Assembly (NCBI RefSeq): GCF_003386235.1
Contig: NZ_QRDZ01000024.1
Span: 105,405-129,404 of the forward strand
Direction: 5' to 3'
Length of the DNA: 24,000 nucleotides
DNA from: Cohnella phaseoli
Lineage (GTDB): Bacteria > Bacillota > Bacilli > Paenibacillales > Paenibacillaceae
Of the stretch, positions 5,665 through 17,286 are shown piece by piece. Position numbers and translations under genes: made by a program. The notes under the pieces were generated by a model, which had not been told where the DNA came from, did no database searches, and was given only the letters and a program-made list of their open reading frames with translations. Every line of letters starts with the position of its first letter. Positions within the stretch are counted from its first letter, which is position 1.

Positions 5665-6675
5665 TTATTTTTGGGATTCCGTTAACGTCTCCGTGTCGAA
5701 CTGCCATTCCGTCGCATTGCCGTCGGCATCGATCACCGTAAAGCTCAGCACGGTCCCTTCCTCGTTCCAGGTCAGTTGACCGATGCTGCCTTCTCTGGGC
5801 TCCGAGTGGTATAGCAATTCGCCGTTCTCGATTTTGTATACCTCGAACGTCCCGCTTCCCGTTACGGAGACGGCCTTCCACTTGGCGTCCGGGGAATCGG
5901 CCTGTTCCGCAGGAATGGCCGCCAGCCCCGCCATCTCGGGATCTTCTTCTCCCGTTAAGGTTTGCCGCTGTGTCACTTCAACCTCCACGGGCTCTTTATC
6001 TTGCACATTCCCAGAGCCTCCCGTAACGTCCTCATCGTTCGACATGTTGTTGTTACGCATCTCTGCCGACGGTTGCGGAACATCTTCCTTGGACGAGGGC
6101 GATATGCTCTTAGGCTGGATCTCGGCGCCGTACTGGTCCTGTGCCTGTGCGCCGCCCGACGTTTCCGACATGGAATATAAACCGGCCTCCGGCGCGGAAG
6201 CCGCTTCCTGACGCGCTTCCGGAGCCGACGCCAAATCCGGCATTGCAGCTTGGTCCTGACTGCCTCCGGACTTCAGCCACTCTCCTGGAGAGCTGAATAG
6301 AAGAAAGCCTACGACAATCCCCGCGGCGACGACGCCCGATATTTTGCGATAAAAATTCCGGCTTGGCCGTTGCGAACGGGCAGACGTCGGCGCCGGCGAT
6401 GCGGCGGCTGGATCAACTGCAGCTTCGTTCGCTCCGGATGTCGCGCCCTCCGCATGGAGTCGCTCAAGCTCCGGAAGAATCGAATCCACGATGCTGAACT
6501 TCGGCACGACGCGTGGCAGCTGCTCAAGCTCGCTGGATAGTTTGCGGAGCCTGGACAGCATGGCGGCGCAGTCCGAGCAGCGATCGGCATGATCCATCAT
6601 GAGCGATATTTCATGCTGCTCCAGATCGCCGTCAATGTGGCGCTGCATGAGTTCCATCACCTCTTCGCATTTCAT
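5665..6675 (-). CDS. Membrane-spanning zinc-finger anti-sigma factor (ZAS type)
   Basis: N-terminal H-x3-C-x2-C motif (DHADRCSDC), a central TM helix (ISGVVAAGIVVGFLLF), a low-complexity linker and a small C-terminal extracytoplasmic domain. Its ATG overlaps the sigma gene stop (ATGA at 6672-6675), indicating translational coupling. Confidence 0.82.
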   Translation of the reverse strand: MKCEEVMELMQRHIDGDLEQHEISLMMDHADRCSDCAAMLSRLRKLSSELEQLPRVVPKFSIVDSILPELERLHAEGATSGANEAAVDPAAASPAPTSARSQRPSRNFYRKISGVVAAGIVVGFLLFSSPGEWLKSGGSQDQAAMPDLASAPEARQEAASAPEAGLYSMSETSGGAQAQDQYGAEIQPKSISPSSKEDVPQPSAEMRNNNMSNDEDVTGGSGNVQDKEPVEVEVTQRQTLTGEEDPEMAGLAAIPAEQADSPDAKWKAVSVTGSGTFEVYKIENGELLYHSEPREGSIGQLTWNEEGTVLSFTVIDADGNATEWQFDTETLTESQK

Positions 6676-7220
6676 CCCCGGACACCACCTTTCTGATAAT
6701 CATGGAGTAAAATTTGCAATTGCTGCCGGGCTCTAAATAAGTAGGATTTAACAGTATTAAGCGGCAAATTCAAAGAATCGGCAATTTCGTTATAAGAAAA
6801 ATCTTGAAGATACCTGAGAACGACAACGGTACGATGGTGCTCGGGAAGTTTACCGATGGCTTCTCTGATTTCTTCCGCGGCATAGGCGGACAGCACTTCA
6901 GTCTCCACGTTATCCCCCGCCTGGAAAACCATCTCGTGTTCCTCGATGGATACGGACGGCTTTTTGCGCCGAAACTTGTCGATGCAGATATTCGTAACGA
7001 TTCGCTGCACCCAGGTGCGAAACTGCGCCTTTTCCTCATAGGATCCGATTTTCGTATATATTCGAATCAACGCATCCTGCGACGCATCAAGCGCATCCTG
7101 CTCGTTATTCAGCAAATAATAGGCGGTGCGATACACTTGATTCTCGATTTCGCGGAGTAGCGTAACGAGAGCTTCCCGGTCGCCCGCTTGTGCGGCTTTG
7201 ATCAGAGCCGGCTCCACCAC
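6672..7220 (-). CDS. ECF (sigma-70 group 4) RNA polymerase sigma factor
   Basis: 182 aa with a GTG start and GGAGGAGGA 6 nt upstream. Region 2 (DALDASQDALIRIY, FRTWVQRIVTNICIDKFRR) and region 4 (YNEIADSLNLPLNTVKSYLFRARQQL) are recognisable. Confidence 0.9.
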   Translation of the reverse strand: MVEPALIKAAQAGDREALVTLLREIENQVYRTAYYLLNNEQDALDASQDALIRIYTKIGSYEEKAQFRTWVQRIVTNICIDKFRRKKPSVSIEEHEMVFQAGDNVETEVLSAYAAEEIREAIGKLPEHHRTVVVLRYLQDFSYNEIADSLNLPLNTVKSYLFRARQQLQILLHDYQKGGVRG

Positions 7221-7431: not shown

Positions 7432-10116
7432 CTAGCGTTCGGGTGCAGAGGAGACCATCATTCTTCGCCGCATCGCTCCGTCCGAAGAGATTCGATACTG
7501 AACCTCTCCGTCGGTATCGGTTCTCCAGATCAGGCTTCCCGCGCTTTCAAGGCGCTGCAGCACCGCCGGACTCGGATGCCCGTAAAAATTGTTGCGTCCG
7601 ACGGAAATGACCGTCTCCCTCGGCTTCCAGTAATCGACCCACAAGCCGGTCGTCGAGGTTTTGCTTCCGTGATGACCGGCTTTGAGCACGTCGATGGCGA
7701 TACGACGACGGCCTTGAGCGTTTACGGCCTTCTGCCCGGCGGCATGGCCCGCTTCCATGATCGAGTTCCCGTTGTCGGCACCCTCCGAATCTACGATCGC
7801 ACTGCCTAGGGCAGCGTACTCCGCATCCACGATCGCCATCTCTCCCCCCGCCTCTAAATCCCCGGGAAGCAGAAATCGACGTCCGTACAGCGTTGCCAGA
7901 ATAACGACACTCCGGTCATTCTGTTCGTCTCTAATCTCTACCGAAGCGTCAGAGTCGGCGTCCCTAGACTCAGAGGAAAGAATTCGAAGGACGGCGGAAG
8001 CATCGATCTGCCATTCGCCCGGTTTATTAGCGCCGTAGACCGGAATGCTCTTGTTTGCCGCCATTTGCATAAGCGCCAAAGCTCCGGGCGAATCTTTCAA
8101 CGTACCGTTGAACAGCAGCGCGCGTACTGGAATATTGTCAAGCACTGCACTCGCGCCTCCGATATGGTCCGCATCCATATGAGTGAGCACAAGCGCGTCG
8201 AGCTGCCCGACTCCTCTGCGAAGCAGCAGCGGAACGAGCAGTTTCCTTCCGACCTCATACGGATCGCTCCGTTCCCGCCATTCCTCTCCGGGCTTACGGA
8301 AGCTGACCGTTCCTCCCGCGTCGATCAGAATATGCTTGCCGTAGCCCGTCCGAATAAGAATACTGTCGCCCTGCCCAACGTTAAGGAAAGACACTTGAGC
8401 TTCGCGGTCCAGCCAGGCCGGTTGCGCTCCCCATACGAGCCATGCGGCGAGAGCCGCTCCAAACCCGGCGCGCCTCAGCAAGGATCGGACTTTTTCCGCG
8501 CGATTCGCGCCAGGCAAAGAACGATCCAGCGGTATAGTTGCCTCCCCCTCCGACAATCTCTCCTGCCCGCTCCACCACTCGCGCTCCCGAAGTCGACGAG
8601 AACGGCGCCTCATCCCCGCAAGGGCAACTCCCATTAGCGCGTATGCGCATACGACCCAAGCCAGCGAGGGCTGCGGCCATACCGTCCTCCATCCGGAAAA
8701 ACCGCTTAGCCAGTCCACGGCCACAAACGTCAAATCGTTGCCCAGCGTCGCCAGCTTAGCCGGCCATATTCCGAGCGGATACCAGATCGCGCCTAATACG
8801 ATTGAGGCCATACCCAAGGGCATTACGATAACGCTTATAAAAGGAACTAACGCAAAGTTAGCCGGAAGAGACAGCAAATGCATCGAGTGGAAATAGTAGA
8901 CCGAAACCGGAAAGGAAACGATTTGCGCCGTCACGGTAACGGAAATCGCTCCCTTCAGCCAGCCCCAATTAATCGAAATTAGCTCGGATACCGCCGGCAC
9001 AAACAAGATCAATCCCCCCGTAACGATAAAGGACAGCTGAAAGCTGACGTCTTCGATCAGCAGCGGATTCCAGATCAGCATGACCATCGCCGCGGCGAAC
9101 AGCAGATGAAGACCGTCCTTCAATGCGTTGCGTCGAGCTAGAGTGAGCGCGATCATCGCCATCAGACAGGCACGTACGACAGACGGCGACGCTCCTGTCA
9201 GCAGCATGTAAACCGGCATCATCGCAATGGTCAATTCAAGCGACCGTTCGCGAGTCAGTCTCAACAAGCTGCCGATTTGCAGCAGCAAATAAACAATAAC
9301 AGCTACATGCAGCCCTGATATAGCGAGAATATGCGTCAGCCCGAGCCGCGCGAATTGATCGAACTGGATCGGATCAAGATCGGAGCGGATGCCAACGACC
9401 AGGCCCTTCATATATCCCGCATCCCCGTTAGGAAATAGGCGATCAGTCAGTTTGCCGATCTGTTCTCTCACGTCGTCCAGCAGACGCAGCGGCTTTATCC
9501 AGAGGGGAGGCGGCCCGTTGTCGATCTCGACCCTATCGGCACCTTTAACGGAAAGCTGCCAGAAGACGCCTTGTTTCATTAGATAACGGCGATAATCGAA
9601 TGCTCCGAAATTGCCGGCCTCACCGGGAAGCTCCATCATACCGGACACTTGAACGCTGTCCCCCCGCTTCCATGCGGCTGCCGTTTGCTGCTCCGACAGT
9701 GCGGCCAGCTTTACTCGGACGATGACTTCCAGTTTCACTCGTCTCTCCTCAAACCCGTCTCCTTTGATCGTTGCAGCTTTTAATCTGAATGTCGCCAAAT
9801 CGCCGTCCACTTCCACAACGGAGACGAGCCTGCCCGCAAGCTCGACCGCTCCGCCGCTTTTCGCAACCTCGTTATCAACTCGAACGTCCGGAAGAAAACT
9901 CTGATCCGTCCACGCGCGCTCTCCATAAGCAAGCACCAATGCCGCTGCGCAAATAAGCGCAAGCTTGGGCGTCGCCATCCCGGCAACAGCCAGACCCAGC
10001 AAGGCTATCAGCAGCGCTGCCAATGCCCATACGGCCTCTTTTCCGGAGAACAAGGATAGTAGCGCAGTTCCTGCGATCCAACAGCTGGCGACCGCAATCA
10101 ACGGCCTTTGATTCAT
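7432..10116 (-). CDS. comEC: DNA internalization competence protein ComEC/Rec2
   Basis: 894-aa polytopic membrane protein with an N-terminal OB-like region, a competence (transmembrane) domain and a C-terminal metallo-beta-lactamase domain (VLTHMDADHIGG ... KAGHHGSKTS). AAGGAGGAGG lies 7 nt upstream of the ATG. Confidence 0.93.
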   Translation of the reverse strand: MNQRPLIAVASCWIAGTALLSLFSGKEAVWALAALLIALLGLAVAGMATPKLALICAAALVLAYGERAWTDQSFLPDVRVDNEVAKSGGAVELAGRLVSVVEVDGDLATFRLKAATIKGDGFEERRVKLEVIVRVKLAALSEQQTAAAWKRGDSVQVSGMMELPGEAGNFGAFDYRRYLMKQGVFWQLSVKGADRVEIDNGPPPLWIKPLRLLDDVREQIGKLTDRLFPNGDAGYMKGLVVGIRSDLDPIQFDQFARLGLTHILAISGLHVAVIVYLLLQIGSLLRLTRERSLELTIAMMPVYMLLTGASPSVVRACLMAMIALTLARRNALKDGLHLLFAAAMVMLIWNPLLIEDVSFQLSFIVTGGLILFVPAVSELISINWGWLKGAISVTVTAQIVSFPVSVYYFHSMHLLSLPANFALVPFISVIVMPLGMASIVLGAIWYPLGIWPAKLATLGNDLTFVAVDWLSGFSGWRTVWPQPSLAWVVCAYALMGVALAGMRRRSRRLREREWWSGQERLSEGEATIPLDRSLPGANRAEKVRSLLRRAGFGAALAAWLVWGAQPAWLDREAQVSFLNVGQGDSILIRTGYGKHILIDAGGTVSFRKPGEEWRERSDPYEVGRKLLVPLLLRRGVGQLDALVLTHMDADHIGGASAVLDNIPVRALLFNGTLKDSPGALALMQMAANKSIPVYGANKPGEWQIDASAVLRILSSESRDADSDASVEIRDEQNDRSVVILATLYGRRFLLPGDLEAGGEMAIVDAEYAALGSAIVDSEGADNGNSIMEAGHAAGQKAVNAQGRRRIAIDVLKAGHHGSKTSTTGLWVDYWKPRETVISVGRNNFYGHPSPAVLQRLESAGSLIWRTDTDGEVQYRISSDGAMRRRMMVSSAPER

Positions 10117-10136
10117 TTTCGCACCTCCTCCTTGAA

Positions 10137-10190
10137 CACAAAAAACACCTCCCCGCAGAGCATTACGCTCGGCGAAGAGGTGCTTCCTCT
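10137..10190 (-). repeat. Direct repeat copy A: terminator hairpin + U6, 6 nt upstream of the comEC SD
   Basis: CAC-A6-CACCTCCCCGCAGAGCATTACGCTCGGCGAAGAGGTGCTTCCTCT. On the minus strand CACCUCUUCGCCGAGC (10182-10167) pairs with GCUCUGCGGGGAGGUG (10161-10146) around a 5-nt loop, followed by U6 (10145-10140). Identical to 10824-10879 except for A-run length. Confidence 0.9.
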
Positions 10191-10353
10191 AACTTGTATT
10201 GCTGAAAAAGCCAAAGATAGCTTAGTTCCGGATGCGGATGACGAGAAGGATAGCCGGGTGACAATCCGGATCTCCTAACCGCGATTACTCGCAGGGCGTG
10301 GGCTGCCTGTTCCCACCTCTGCTCCTTCTCTACTCCATTTTATGCATGTATCT
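10191..10353 (-). promoter_or_regulatory. Unclassified structured 5' leader RNA candidate between the 10360-10388 promoter and terminator copy A
   Basis: Hand fold: perfect 8-bp helix GAGAAGGA (10330-10323) / UCCUUCUC (10250-10243) encloses three hairpins. These are GUGGG/CCCAC (10316-10298), CUGCGA-GUAA-UCGCGG (10294-10279, GNRA loop) and CCGG/CCGG (10269-10054 is not meant; span is 10269-10254). No ORF with a convincing start. Not recognisable as any riboswitch class I know. Confidence 0.35.
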
Positions 10354-10359
10354 CACTTC

Positions 10360-10388
10360 ATTATAGCTAAGAAAATTTTCCTGTGCAA
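10360..10388 (-). promoter_or_regulatory. Near-consensus sigma-A promoter, TTGCAC-N17-TATAAT, facing comEC
   Basis: Minus-strand -35 TTGCAC (10388-10383), exact 17-nt spacer, -10 TATAAT (10365-10360). It starts 9 nt after the stop codon of the 10397-10792 gene. Confidence 0.65.
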
Positions 10389-10396
10389 CTCGGTAA

Positions 10397-10792
10397 TTAG
10401 CCTAATTCTACCGTTCCTTGCTCGGGATCTTCATATACTTTCAGGTAGCCTTTGGTTTTATAATGATGCCATTTTTCTTCAGACATAATAAACAAAGTTC
10501 GCGCAAAATAATTCCCGCTGACTGATATACGCACCGCTACCAATACTCGTTTGCGTACACTTTCAATCTCCTTGATATACTGGATTGAGCCGTCACTGGG
10601 ATGCAACGAAACATAATTAGGACAAAGTATAATTTCCTCGAGTAAGTGACCAAAGCTCGCGTAATCGCTCCCATGCTTTGCGATCATGTGGCATACATTC
10701 TGCCTGCCGCAAAAAATAGGAGTTCCAGTCGGAACAGATAAGCCGAGCAAATCTATTTCTCTTTGCTTAATCTCTCCCACTTTTTCCGCCAA
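10397..10792 (-). CDS. Hypothetical 131-aa protein; resembles small PBECR-type (phage Barnase-EndoU-ColicinE5/D-RelE-like) nuclease proteins
   Basis: TTG start with TAAGGAGGA (10808-10800) 7 nt upstream, and an in-frame TGA 10 codons upstream. Clearly AT-richer than its neighbours. The pattern ...IFCGRQNVCHMIAKHGSDYASF...IILCPNYV...SIQYIKE...VLVAVRISVSGNYFARTLF matches the H-x4-H...DY...P(D/N)Y(I/V)...V.V.(L/R) layout I recall for these nucleases. Family call is from recall, not a search. Confidence 0.55.
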   Translation of the reverse strand: MAEKVGEIKQREIDLLGLSVPTGTPIFCGRQNVCHMIAKHGSDYASFGHLLEEIILCPNYVSLHPSDGSIQYIKEIESVRKRVLVAVRISVSGNYFARTLFIMSEEKWHHYKTKGYLKVYEDPEQGTVELG

Positions 10793-10823
10793 ATGCTCGT
10801 CCTCCTTACTCGCAACCTCATTT

Positions 10824-10879
10824 CACAAAAAAAACACCTCCCCGCAGAGCATTACGCTCGGCGAAGAGGTGCTTCCTCT
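10824..10879 (-). repeat. Direct repeat copy B: terminator hairpin + U8 downstream of comEB
   Basis: Same sequence as 10137-10190 but with A8 instead of A6. Lies 23 nt after the comEB stop. The U-tract ends 18 nt before the SD of the 10397-10792 gene. Weaker similarity continues to about 10892 (TGTATCGCT versus TGTATTGCT at 10195-10203). Confidence 0.9.
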
Positions 10880-10901
10880 CCTGCTGTATCGCTATTGTAA
10901 A

Positions 10902-11414
10902 CTATGAACCGTCTTGAACCTCGGTGTCCGCGGGAGGAGTGTAGTTGTCCAGCTTGCGGAAAATCAGCCCCCGCTGCTCCATCAGCGCGGCGACCTTGTC
11001 ATAATCCTTCGGATACGGCCTGTAGTAGACGATTTCCGCAATGCCGCTGTTCGCGAGCATGTTCGCGCAAGTCCAGCAAGGCTGATCCGTCACGTATACG
11101 ACGGAGCCTTCCCGATCGACGCGGTCGGTGAACAACAGCAGGTTTTGTTCCGCATGAATCGTCCGAATGCAGCGCTGCTTCTTGATCATTTCCGTGGAGC
11201 CCGCCGGAGCGGGCTCGAACTCTTCCACGATCATGCAGCCTGCTTCCGAGCAATCCTGCACGCCCATCGGAGCGCCGTTGTAAGCTGTACCCAGCAGCTT
11301 TTTGCCCTGCACGAGCACCGTGCCCACATGGCGTCTTGGACAGCGCGAACGGGTCGAAACCATAAAAGCGATGTCCATAAAATACGTATCCCAGTCTTTG
11401 CGCAAGTCTGTCAC
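10902..11414 (-). CDS. comEB: dCMP deaminase ComEB
   Basis: Cytidine/deoxycytidylate deaminase zinc motifs HAEQN and PCWTCANML. The N-terminus KDWDTYFMDIAFMVSTRSRC aligns with B. subtilis ComEB ISWNQYFMAQSHLLALRSTC. The track start is GTG 11414; TTG at 11405 has better spacing to AGGAAGG. Confidence 0.92.
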   Translation of the reverse strand: MTDLRKDWDTYFMDIAFMVSTRSRCPRRHVGTVLVQGKKLLGTAYNGAPMGVQDCSEAGCMIVEEFEPAPAGSTEMIKKQRCIRTIHAEQNLLLFTDRVDREGSVVYVTDQPCWTCANMLANSGIAEIVYYRPYPKDYDKVAALMEQRGLIFRKLDNYTPPADTEVQDGS

Positions 11415-14541: not shown

Positions 14542-16977
14542 TTAATTGGCGACAATGTTGACGAGCTTGCCTTTGACCGCGATCACCTTGCGAATCGTCT
14601 TGCCGGCAATCGCCTCTTGCACCTTCTCGGCTTCCAGCGCCTGCGCCTGCATGCCCGCTTCGTCCAGATCGGCGGCGATCTTCAGACGTTCGGCGATTTT
14701 GCCGTTTACCTGCACGACGATCTCGACTTCCGCATCCACCGTAAGCGCTGCGTCGTACTGCGGCCAAGAAGCGTAAGTGACGGACTCGGAATGGCCAAGC
14801 TTCTCCCACAGCTCTTCCGTAATATGCGGCGCGATCGGGGACAGCATTTGCACGAAGTCCTCCATCGCTTTTTTCGGCAGCACTTCCGTTTTGTAAGCTT
14901 CGTTGACGAAAATCATCATCTGGCTGATCGCCGTGTTAAAGCGCAAGCCCTCGTAATCCTCGCCGACCTTCTTCAGGCTCTTGTGCCAAATCCGACGGAA
15001 CGCATCGTCTCCGTCGACTTCCTGGATCTTGGCGTTCAAGTTGCCGTTATCGTCGACGAACAGACGCCATACGCGAGCGAGGAAGCGGAACACGCCTTCC
15101 ACGCCGTTGGTATTCCAAGGCTTTGTCGCTTCCAGAGGTCCCATGAACATCTCGTACATCCGCAGCGTATCGGCGCCGAATTCGCCGACGATGTCGTCCG
15201 GGTTAATGACGTTGCCGCGGGATTTGGACATTTTCTCGTTGTTCGTGCCGAGAATCATCCCTTGGTTAACGAGCTTGTGGAACGGCTCCTTCGTGCTCAC
15301 GACGCCGAGATCGTACAGCACCTTATGCCAGAAACGCGCATACAGCAAATGAAGAACCGCATGCTCCGCGCCGCCGATGTACAGATCGACCGGCAGCCAC
15401 TCGCGCTGCTTCTCCGGCGAGCAGATTTCCTTGTCGTTCTTCGGATCGATGAAGCGCAGATAATACCAGCAGCTTCCCGCCCATTGCGGCATCGTATTCG
15501 TCTCGCGGCGGGCTTGGCGGCCGTTGCGCGGATCGACGACGTTGACCCATTCCGTCACATTGGCAAGCGGAGACTCGCCTGTACCGGAAGGCTGGATCGC
15601 GTCCACGTCCGGCAGCAGCAGCGGCAAATCCTCTTCCGGAACGGTGTCCATCGTGCCGTCCTCGTAGTGGAGTACCGGAATCGGCTCGCCCCAATAACGC
15701 TGGCGGCTGAACAGCCAGTCGCGCAGACGGTACGTGACTTTGCCTTTCCCCGTGCCCGCCTGTTCCAGGTGGGCGATCATCGCTTGGATCGCTTCCGCAG
15801 TTCCCATACCGTTCAGGAACTCGGAATTAACCAGCTTGCCGTCGCCCGAATAGGCCGCTTCCTCTACGTTCCCGCCCGCCACGACTTCCTTGATCGACAG
15901 ATCGAATTTCTTCGCAAACTCCCAGTCGCGCTCGTCGTGGCCCGGAACGGCCATGATTGCGCCCGTGCCGTAGCCGCCGAGCACGTAGTCGGCGATCCAG
16001 ATCGGCACCTTGACGCCGTTCACCGGATTGACGGCATAAGCGCCGGTAAATACGCCGCTCTTGTCTTTGGCCAGATCCGTTCGCTCCAAGTCGCTCTTGC
16101 GAGCCGCTTGCTCGACGTACGCTTCGACGGCCGCTTGCTGCTCGGCGGTCGTAATCGAACCGACCAGTTCATGCTCGGGAGCGAGCACGCAATACGTCGC
16201 TCCGAACAGCGTGTCTGGACGCGTCGTGAATACGGTCAGCGCCGCGCCATGGCCGTCGATGGCGAACGTCACTTCCGCGCCGGTCGACTTGCCGATCCAG
16301 TTGCGCTGCATATCCTTGATGCTTTCCGACCAGTCCAGCTCTTCCAAATCTTCAAGCAGGCGTTCGGCGTACTCGGTAATTTTGAGCATCCATTGGCGCA
16401 TCGGCTTGCGGATCACCGGATGGCCGCCGCGCTCGCTCAGCCCGTCAATGACCTCTTCGTTGGCCAGCACCGTGCCGAGCGCCGGACACCAGTTAACCGG
16501 CACTTCCGCCACGTAAGCGAGCCCTTTTTTGTACAGTTGGATAAAAATCCACTGCGTCCACTTATAATAGTCCGGGTCCGTCGTGCTAAACTCCCGGTCC
16601 CAATCGTAGGAGAAACCGAGCGACTTGATCTGGCGACGGAAATTGTCGATGTTCTCGAACGTAATTTCGCGCGGATGACGCCCCGTCTGCAGCGCGTATT
16701 GCTCGGCCGGCAAGCCGAACGCGTCCCAGCCCATCGGGTGCAGCACGTTGAAGCCCTTCATCCTCTTAAAACGGCTGACGATATCGGTCGCCGTATAGCC
16801 TTCCGGGTGGCCGACGTGAAGTCCCGCCCCCGATGGATAGGGGAACATGTCAAGCGCGTAGAATTTCGGCTTGCCCGCATCCTCCGTCGTCTTAAACGTC
16901 TTGTTCTCGTCCCAATATTTTTGCCACTTCGGTTCGATTTTCTGCGGCTGATAACCTTGACCTTGCTCCTGTGCCAT
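14542..16977 (-). CDS. leuS: Leucine--tRNA ligase
   Basis: 811 aa with class I signatures ([21 protein letters not shown]) and a typical LeuRS N-terminus [20 protein letters not shown]. Preceded by a Leu T-box. Confidence 0.97.
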
Positions 16978-16999: not shown

Positions 17000-17286
17000 A
17001 AAAAATAAAAAAGCTCCCGCCCCCAGCGTTGTCGCTAGGGACGAGAGCGTCATCTCCCGTGGTACCACCCTAGTTGACGGCAATCCTGCTTGGATGTCCG
17101 CCCACTCTGCCTCGTAACGAGAGGTAACGCCTTGCCTACTTGATCCATATTCGCATAAGCGAAGAGAAATCCGTTCGGTTCGGAGGCTCCAAGGCGAGTT
17201 CGTCGCAGTCGCTAACCGGCTCGCACCTTCCGCCGGCTCTCTGAATAACGTCACGCGATTACTGTTCCTTTTCATAGCCAAAGTAT
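17000..17286 (-). promoter_or_regulatory. T-box riboswitch leader (tRNA-Leu, specifier CUC) controlling leuS
   Basis: Minus strand shows AGUA and AGAGAG boxes, a distal-loop GGUGCGA, and a specifier loop GAA-CUC-G (CUC at 17198-17196). The T-box sequence AACUAGGGUGGUACCACGGGAG lies at 17075-17054. A terminator hairpin (17047-17013) plus a U-run (17012-17000) ends about 10 nt before the leuS SD. Confidence 0.9.

Follow-up and report, generated by a model that had tools for sequence, protein, structure and literature searches.

What holds the competence genes comEB and comEC of Cohnella phaseoli apart, and how did the same long hairpin come to stand on both sides of the DNA between them? The question arises from a stretch of 24,000 nt (contig NZ_QRDZ01000024.1, positions 105,405–129,404; hereafter the window), to which all coordinates refer unless a comparison locus, cited by its L number, is named. 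An earlier note, based on the letters of the window, had proposed that a foreign module was inserted at the comEB terminator and duplicated it. The analysis makes it likely that a fragment of a plasmid-type module, which consists of a gene for a predicted RNase of the PBECR3 family and a separately promoted small RNA (sRNA) of the skipping-rope type, was captured at the terminator that natively separates comEB from comEC. Alleles with and without this cassette were found within the species.

Filled and empty alleles of the comEB–comEC junction

A repeat search in the window detected a 64-nt direct repeat (10127–10190 and 10816–10879) with 94% identity and a spacing of 689 nt, which equals the insert plus one repeat and leaves the insertion point ambiguous anywhere within the repeat. 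A core of 37 nt within it is present at these two sites and nowhere else in the window, and 100 dinucleotide-preserving shuffles yielded no match. The hairpins within the two copies (54 nt at 10137–10190, copy 1; 56 nt at 10824–10879, copy 2) differ solely in a homopolymer, which on the plus strand is A6 in the former and A8 in the latter, exactly as the earlier note had read them; the weaker similarity that it had seen past the hairpin corresponds to the extension at 10127–10136. All genes of the comE region are coded on the minus strand here, and on this strand both copies fold into a long hairpin followed by a U-run (−33.4 kcal/mol, z −6.6, for copy 1; −34.4 kcal/mol, z −6.3, for copy 2), in agreement with their description as intrinsic terminators. 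The DNA between the repeats (10191–10823, 633 nt) has a G + C content of 44.1% compared to 56.4% for the window, and the G + C content at third codon positions (GC3) is 41.7% in the open reading frame (ORF) of this cassette versus 63–73% in comEB, comEC, and the gene of a pyridoxal phosphate (PLP)-dependent enzyme, so that the AT-richness noticed by eye is borne out.

A ComEB search restricted to one genome per species returned 80 loci, the closest of which were all from Cohnella. Both comEB and comEC were found in 43 Cohnella-type loci, 35 of which have a spacer of 81–151 nt between the two genes, and the relatives whose junction was read carry in this spacer one orthologous hairpin that starts with AGAGGAAGCACCTCTTC, ends in a T-run, and differs between species at about 3 of 51 positions. 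The cassette ORF was present in none of the 80 loci, and the relatives do not share the arrangement of the window. In Cohnella the two genes are normally separated by a native terminator, unlike the contiguous pair of B. subtilis; the latter layout had been described correctly in the earlier note, but it is not the appropriate baseline for Cohnella.

When a metagenome collection was scanned with a 44-nt pattern of the hairpin, five contigs (L092–L096) were obtained, every one of them at the comEB–comEC junction. Two of these (L092, L094; 99.2–99.7% identity to the window) contain two terminator copies, and two from another species (L093, L095; approximately 87% identity) contain a single copy. 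The fifth (L096) is 98.5–99.5% identical to the window and also has a single copy, its alignment jumping from window position 10190 to 10816. Among isolates, two genomes encode a ComEB identical to that of the window: one is filled (L101, GCA_040392865.1), whereas the other, an 8.9-Mb complete genome (L102, GCA_017671885.1, CP072117.1), carries the empty allele with flanks that, like those of L096, are 98.5–99.5% identical. In L096 and L102 the single copy combines the comEB-side flank of copy 2 with the comEC-side flank of copy 1. L092, L094, and L101 show the two-copy arrangement as well, as does L001 up to its contig end, which lies inside the second copy; the arrangement is therefore not an assembly artefact.

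Five assemblies (the window, L001, L092, L094, and L101; approximately 99% identity) are thus filled and two (L096, L102) are empty, all within about 1% divergence. Within the species the locus is polymorphic for the presence of the cassette, and the hairpin is the native comEB terminator, which was single before the event and now stands on both sides of a 633-bp insert. The empty allele is the exact product expected of recombination between the two copies; both the existence of empty sites and the restoration of a clean junction by such recombination had been anticipated, and L096 and L102 carry exactly the predicted site. The haplotypes of single-nucleotide polymorphisms within the species are mosaic and too few to order insertion versus deletion. 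The U-run of copy 2 varies among strains, with U8 in the window and U9 in L101, and is U6 in copy 1 and in the empty alleles; this looks like homopolymer slippage and might influence read-through into the RNase gene.

The idea that the flanking hairpins are a generic dispersed element of the repetitive extragenic palindromic type, or an assembly artefact, and that their position is coincidental draws on the hairpin shape alone. It is refuted by the two copies in the window, the confinement of all metagenome matches to the junction, the orthology of the hairpin across the genus, and the recurrence of the arrangement in independent assemblies.

A predicted RNase gene paired with a skipping-rope RNA

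The gene that had been read between the repeats is real and intact, and can now be assigned to the PBECR3 family of predicted RNases. Its product matched the Pfam family PBECR3 (PF18812) with an E-value of 2e-15 and 57.2 bits (gathering cut-off 30) over profile positions 2–114 of 115, and PBECR2 more weakly. Alignment with the homologues begins at residue 1 of the protein, which retains the invariant residues H35, H40, R88, R98, and T99. T99 is invariant in 14 homologues, S104 nearly so, and H35 lies inside a predicted helix (30–56); catalytic roles of residues of the H35/T99/S104 type would be in line with the description of the family (PMC5512222). An AlphaFold2 model (pLDDT 91.7) had as its best Foldseek match in the PDB the RNase toxin BrnT (3u97), with a probability of 0.99, a weak E-value of 0.037, TM-scores of 0.38 (query) and 0.58 (target), and 20% identity over 79 aligned columns. 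The reading frame is intact in all five filled assemblies. An exact-sequence look-up of the window protein gave no match, the other strains differing at residue 131, and the nearest relative outside the species is 67% identical. No recognizable sigma-A-type promoter was found ahead of the gene in a promoter scan.

In the defining study of the PBECR domains (Iyer et al., 2017; PMC5512222), host or CRISPR RNAs were proposed as their targets. The cassette protein resembles these PBECR3/PBECR2 RNases (PF18812, PF18810) in its profile match above the cut-off, in the conserved His, Arg, and Thr residues, and in being a small solo version of the kind which those authors noted on mobile elements. It differs in that its subfamily was encountered on chromosomes and small plasmids but not in the phage records or IMG/VR, and in being always paired with a structured RNA, a link absent from that paper. 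A phage origin was rejected, since 50,697 phage records, IMG/VR, and the PHROG families all lacked a match, and assignment to a known defence system was not supported by PADLOC or NCBIfam, which contained no match for the RNase. With BrnT/BrnA and other RelE-fold type II toxins the protein would, by its predicted structure, share a small metal-independent RNase fold, BrnT being the closest solved one, but the cassette lacks a gene for a protein antitoxin.

Downstream of the RNase gene, the outward-facing consensus promoter reported in the earlier note was confirmed (TTGCAC-17-TATAAT), whereas the foldable leader that it had assumed is in fact an sRNA. A cmscan search identified it as a skipping-rope RNA (RF02924; 42.3 bits versus a gathering score of 36.7, E-value 5e-07, full model 1–80, 10326–10247 on the minus strand), and in an alignment of 10 RNAs including that of the window 17 of the 23 predicted pairs showed compensatory changes. 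The promoter points toward comEC, with a predicted transcription start near 10353, and TTGCAx-17/18-TATAAT occurs at the equivalent position in all six Paenibacillaceae loci compared. Where L002, L006, L007, L008, and L010 have a GC-rich hairpin with a T-run, the window holds a decayed remnant of the sRNA's own terminator, within a 60-nt stretch that folds at only −8.6 kcal/mol (z −0.96). Copy 1, with its strong hairpin and U6, begins 14 nt past the T-run of this remnant and thus supplies the downstream Rho-independent terminator that is a trait of RF02924. The Paenibacillaceae cores are flanked by conserved segments, 5′ GCATACACTGCTTA and 3′ AAGTGTTATGA, which look complementary and are missing from the window and L014; the natural RNA may be larger than the 80-nt Rfam model.

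To our knowledge, no function of the skipping-rope RNA has been established to date. In 2017 it was singled out with a small number of other bacterial RNAs as complex enough to suggest a sophisticated biochemical task; a "compelling association" with a protein gene close by, in either orientation, was reported, the domain being left unnamed in the main text, and the motif was considered an improbable riboswitch (Weinberg et al., 2017; PMC5737381). The window RNA agrees with that description in its covariance model match, its multi-hairpin architecture with covariation, the terminator behind it, and the particular protein gene next to it. It departs from it by the decay of its own terminator, replaced by a duplicated host terminator, by a score at the low end (42 bits), and by its location in a chromosomal competence operon rather than on a plasmid, and the protein partner can now be named as PBECR3/PBECR2.

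The collinear arrangement of promoter, structured RNA, terminator, and comEC on the minus strand, with no space for a further promoter ahead of comEC, could also suggest that the RNA is a cis-acting leader or riboswitch which controls comEC and uses copy 1 as its expression platform. This is very improbable, because elsewhere the RNA has its own terminator followed by unrelated and often oppositely oriented genes, lies on the strand opposite the PBECR gene on Bacillus plasmids, and was considered unlikely to be a riboswitch by its discoverers, and because the empty alleles express comEC without it.

The pairing of gene and RNA extends well beyond Cohnella phaseoli. A common layout of RNase gene, promoter, skipping-rope RNA, and own terminator was found in the Paenibacillaceae loci L002, L006, L007, L008/9, and L010/11, and in all 10 independent contexts a PBECR gene lies approximately 30–130 nt from the RNA. 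The RNA also adjoins a homologous gene on the B. subtilis plasmid pTA1060 and on plasmids of B. velezensis, C. botulinum, and Fusobacterium, being on the opposite strand on both Bacillus plasmids; the homologues reside on small plasmids mostly typed as mobilizable. No RNase locus without the RNA was encountered among the contexts examined. The usual upstream neighbour in most Paenibacillaceae loci, a gene for an HTH_36 protein of about 305 amino acids that resembles replication initiators and DnaD-like loaders (PHROGs), is absent from the cassette, in which the RNase is nevertheless intact. However, about 20 nt ahead of the RNase start (AAGGAGGACGAGCA) resemble the 3′ end of this gene in relatives, which gives the cassette the look of a piece trimmed from a larger module of plasmid type. 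The loss of the HTH_36 gene, the RNA-only locus of C. cellulosilytica described below, and the absence of RNases without RNA point to the RNA as the indispensable partner of the RNase. The cargo is thus a new chromosomal member of a known, uncharacterized RNA–protein pairing.

On pTA1060 (L097) the skipping-rope RNA (6191–6260) lies between the PBECR gene and the single-strand origin (sso), inside which a match to the Rfam Bacillus-plasmid RNA was detected (6354–6409). As the sso has been mapped experimentally to 6349–6549, identity of the skipping-rope RNA with a plasmid single-strand origin was rejected. The plasmid association raises the possibility that RNase and sRNA serve another plasmid function, such as the processing of a structured RNA in replication or copy control, or counter-defence, and that the chromosomal copy is an inert hitch-hiker. 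This would fit the likeness of the usual neighbour to replication initiators, the occurrence of homologues on small rolling-circle or mobilizable plasmids, the distance of only about 90 nt between the RNA and the mapped origin of pTA1060, the attack on host or CRISPR RNAs suggested for PBECR proteins (PMC5512222), and the module's lack of a PADLOC match. Yet on pTA1060 the Rep protein is a separate one and the sso has been mapped to a site of its own, the module is kept in chromosomes without the HTH_36 gene and with an intact RNase frame in five of five assemblies, and the orphan RNA of C. cellulosilytica has accumulated structure-preserving changes. Such a function is thus possible but somewhat unlikely, and a toxin/RNA-antidote-like, selfish nature of the plasmid-derived module is the more probable interpretation of the sequence data.

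Table 1. Features of the comE region in the window, listed in the direction of transcription, and conserved RNA-flanking segments in comparison loci.
Feature	Position	Strand	Details and evidence
comEA	13542–12829	minus	
Cys/Met-metabolism PLP enzyme	12751–11444	minus	Pfam
comEB, dCMP deaminase, 170 amino acids, upstream of cassette	10902–11414	minus	Pfam dCMP_cyt_deam_1; Cohnella orthologues with 79–96% protein identity
Terminator copy 2, comEB side	10816–10879; hairpin and U8 at 10824–10879	minus	repeat; upstream flank matches empty alleles
Foreign cassette, whole	10191–10823 (633 nt)	minus	missing from empty alleles; G + C content
Ribosome-binding site AAGGAGG of RNase gene	10801–10807; with TTG start 10807–10790	minus	
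PBECR3-family predicted RNase gene, 131 amino acids, TTG start	10397–10792	minus	Pfam PF18812
Sigma-A-type promoter of sRNA, TTGCAC-17-TATAAT	10360–10388; −35 at 10388–10383, −10 at 10365–10360	minus	sequence reading and promoter scan
Skipping-rope sRNA	10243–10330 including outer helix; RF02924 match 10247–10326	minus	cmscan
Decayed remnant of the sRNA's own terminator	approx. 10205–10231	minus	position equals that of hairpin and T-run in relatives
Terminator copy 1, comEC side	10127–10190; hairpin and U6 at 10137–10190	minus	repeat; downstream flank matches empty alleles
Weaker-similarity extension of copy 1 into ribosome-binding region of comEC	10127–10136	minus	
comEC, 894 amino acids, downstream of cassette	7432–10116	minus	Pfam Competence, DUF4131, Lactamase_B
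Conserved 5′/3′ flank segments of the RNA	L002:6510–6660, L006:6460–6610, L007:5030–5180, L008:1700–1850, L010:2100–2250		

The PLP-enzyme gene between comEA and comEB distinguishes this region from the B. subtilis comE operon, and the same gene order was present in the Cohnella relatives examined. Immediately downstream of comEC, genes for an extracytoplasmic function (ECF) sigma factor and a putative zinc-finger anti-sigma factor follow on the minus strand (5665–7220). On the other side of the region, a T-box leader (17034–17284, minus strand, 113 bits) precedes a leucyl-tRNA synthetase gene (14542–16977, minus strand), which is ordinary Bacillales backbone.

Origin of the insertion and history of the junction

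The low G + C and GC3 contents, the distance of the nearest relative outside the species, and the homologues on small plasmids all argue for a foreign origin of the cassette. Transposons and insertion sequences were excluded as its vehicle, as the cassette has neither a transposase domain nor terminal inverted repeats at its ends and the duplication spans 51–64 nt. The absence of an integrase or transposase, already pointed out in the earlier note, holds for the whole of 10191–10823, and a target duplication of the transposon type was correctly dismissed there. An integron gene cassette with the hairpin as attC was rejected as well, because the hairpin belongs to the host, as the empty alleles and its genus-wide presence demonstrate, and the region examined contains no integrase.

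The duplication would be explained if the incoming DNA had brought along a further terminator copy. Homology-facilitated illegitimate recombination, or integration of an att or Campbell type, followed by trimming, would be the likeliest ways for this to happen. By the first route, the donor would have carried the cassette directly upstream of a terminator, an arrangement found in L014 and, with a different island, in L016; the right end would be anchored by homology in the terminator and comEC, and the left end would join past the T-run of the recipient, where both sequences read T-run-GTG. Alternatively, a site-specific integration with duplication of the att site could have been followed by an internal deletion, a circle with one terminator copy could have integrated in the Campbell manner, or a template switch could have occurred at the hairpin during repair.

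The site-specific route amounts to a rival explanation in which the two copies are attL and attR of an integrative element at the comEB terminator whose integrase and most of whose cargo were later deleted. Known integrative elements such as ICEBs1 are bordered by direct repeats of about 60 bp (PMC4595007), and the cassette resembles these elements in that 51–64-nt direct repeats of the target flank foreign DNA and that recombination restores the target. A tyrosine-integrase island resides in the orthologous terminator of L013, further islands are located at the junction in L014 and L016, and the PBECR gene of the C. botulinum plasmid adjoins a tyrosine recombinase. However, unlike such elements, the cassette has no recombinase, not even an integrase fragment, in an insert of only 633 bp; the L013 element breaks the terminator without rebuilding a full copy at the visible junction; the island ends of L013 and L016 have no sequence in common with the cassette; and the deletion would have had to end no more than about 20 nt from attL. 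This explanation is therefore considered quite unlikely, and capture of a plasmid-type module fragment at the terminator is preferred. No long flanking direct repeats were found around L002, L006, L007, L008, or L010, and the notion that the module is generally accompanied by a duplicated terminator was accordingly rejected; the duplicated-terminator structure is specific to this locus.

Further insertions were found at the same junction in other Cohnella-type loci. In L013 the tyrosine-integrase island, with a truncated integrase (L013:4545–5190), interrupts the orthologous terminator after AGAGGAAGCACCTCTT. In L016 (4520–5940) the space between the comEB stop and an intact terminator is occupied by the end of a related island and by 1.4 kb of AT-rich inserted DNA that includes a gene for an SDH-type protease. 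Group II introns are situated shortly downstream of the orthologous terminator in L012 (4637–4731) and L036 (4648–6440); some bacterial group II introns target terminators, and these positions fit such a preference. At one intrinsic terminator in a competence operon, mobile DNA of at least four kinds has thus landed repeatedly. In several other Cohnella species, enlarged comEB–comEC spacers are filled by tandem arrays, with units of 50–52 nt in L048 (4919–5113), L043 (4703–4927), and L029 (2424–2500) and of about 113 nt in L034 (4603–4917).

That mobile elements integrate into competence genes in a targeted manner has been described before (Croucher et al., 2016, PMC4774983; reviewed in PMC12378983). 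The Cohnella junction conforms to this pattern in that mobile DNA (the cassette, an integrase island, AT-rich islands, and group II introns) has repeatedly entered a DNA-uptake operon at a single junction. It differs in that the insertions are intergenic and comEC is intact, so that any effect on transformation would act via transcription.

The age of the event was addressed by comparison with C. cellulosilytica (L014). Here a skipping-rope RNA lies directly past the comEB stop, with no RNase. Behind it come a small terminator that belongs to the RNA, a decayed copy of the native terminator, and an AT-rich island. This island (L014:4725–8510) includes a gene for an NA37 nucleoid-associated protein and moves comEC to a distance of more than 4 kb. 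Over 110 nt, the RNA regions of L014 and the window share 89% identity, a value similar to those of comEB (90%) and the PLP-enzyme gene (86%). The two RNAs have derived features in common that are not found in other copies, and the first 10 or so nt past the RNA terminator match too (CAGCAATACA versus CACAAATAAA). The left junction in L014, GGTTCGTA/AATGCGGAGTCG, may be read as the expected product of a deletion between the comEB stop GGTTCATAG and the GCATAAAATGGAGTAG of the cassette. In a neighbour-joining tree of the PLP-enzyme gene and comEB, the window species branched outside the clade in which L014 is nested among single-terminator species. Identity between the window species and C. cellulosilytica is not locally raised at the comEB 3′ end, and a recent interspecies transfer of the filled allele was rejected for this reason, with a short recombination tract still conceivable. 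Two histories appear about equally likely. One assumes that the insertion is old and took place once and that the cassette was then precisely lost several times by way of the repeats, a different deletion in L014 having removed copy 2 and thereby fixed the RNA; the perfect identity of the copies would then need gene conversion or selection. The other assumes that the same terminator was targeted more than once.

Proposed working of the cassette and its consequences

Each unit now has a strong terminator as its boundary. In the proposed mechanism, copy 2 would end comEB transcription, and the promoterless RNase gene would be reached by read-through only. The strong sRNA promoter would yield abundant RNA that ends at copy 1 since its own terminator has decayed, and comEC would retain its usual place directly behind a terminator. 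The abundant structured RNA would then bind or restrain the low-expressed RelE/BrnT-like RNase, as partner or antidote.

Type III toxin–antitoxin systems (ToxIN, CptIN, and TenpIN) consist of an endoRNase and a noncoding RNA, which is encoded upstream as tandem repeats with a terminator in between and neutralizes the toxin by binding. The cassette resembles them in combining an endoRNase-type protein with a noncoding RNA, in the plasmid occurrence of both kinds of system, and in what would likewise be an abundant RNA and a terminator-limited protein. It differs by its single structured RNA, which is located downstream and has its own promoter, and by a predicted fold of the BECR/RelE type rather than that of ToxN. 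As no tandem repeat array is present upstream, the cassette is by definition not of type III. Antisense pairing between sRNA and RNase mRNA, as in type I systems, was rejected too: the best duplex (−91.9 kcal/mol) was close to the shuffle mean (−86.3 kcal/mol, standard deviation 5.9), with 34 of 200 shuffles equal or better, and this lack of antisense complementarity sets the cassette apart from type I.

Several points weigh against this picture. The window RNA scores below most copies (42 versus 50–59 bits) and its own terminator is decayed. The structural similarity to BrnT is weak, with no PDB match reaching an E-value of 0.001, and RNase activity, toxicity, and neutralization by the RNA are predictions made from sequence; lacking a promoter, the RNase gene could be a silent remnant. 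The duplication is a one-off at this locus and not a property of the module, its mechanism is deduced from the end product with which several routes are compatible, and the tree and identity data do not separate a single old insertion with losses from repeated targeting.

A wider interpretation, which is put forward as doubtful, would regard PBECR3/PBECR2 and skipping-rope RNA as an unrecognized class of protein-toxin/structured-RNA-antidote systems distinct from types I and III, with the Cohnella cassette as its minimal two-part form and its capture at the terminator upstream of comEC, a site that other mobile DNA has entered repeatedly, as part of a conflict between mobile elements and transformation.

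For the skipping-rope family, the locus names a predicted BECR-fold RNase as the partner of the RNA and demonstrates that the pair persists without its usual neighbour, while a sister species has the RNA alone; the natural alleles of three kinds, filled, empty, and RNA-only, open the function of the RNA to testing. For Cohnella, the duplicated terminator would, if the wider interpretation is true, allow a reversible and scar-free loss of the cassette. As a side effect of the layout, comEC now lies behind a constitutive promoter and one terminator, instead of behind one comE-operon terminator. The near-isogenic filled and empty isolates represent natural test strains for the toxin/antidote idea, the expression of comEC, and transformability.

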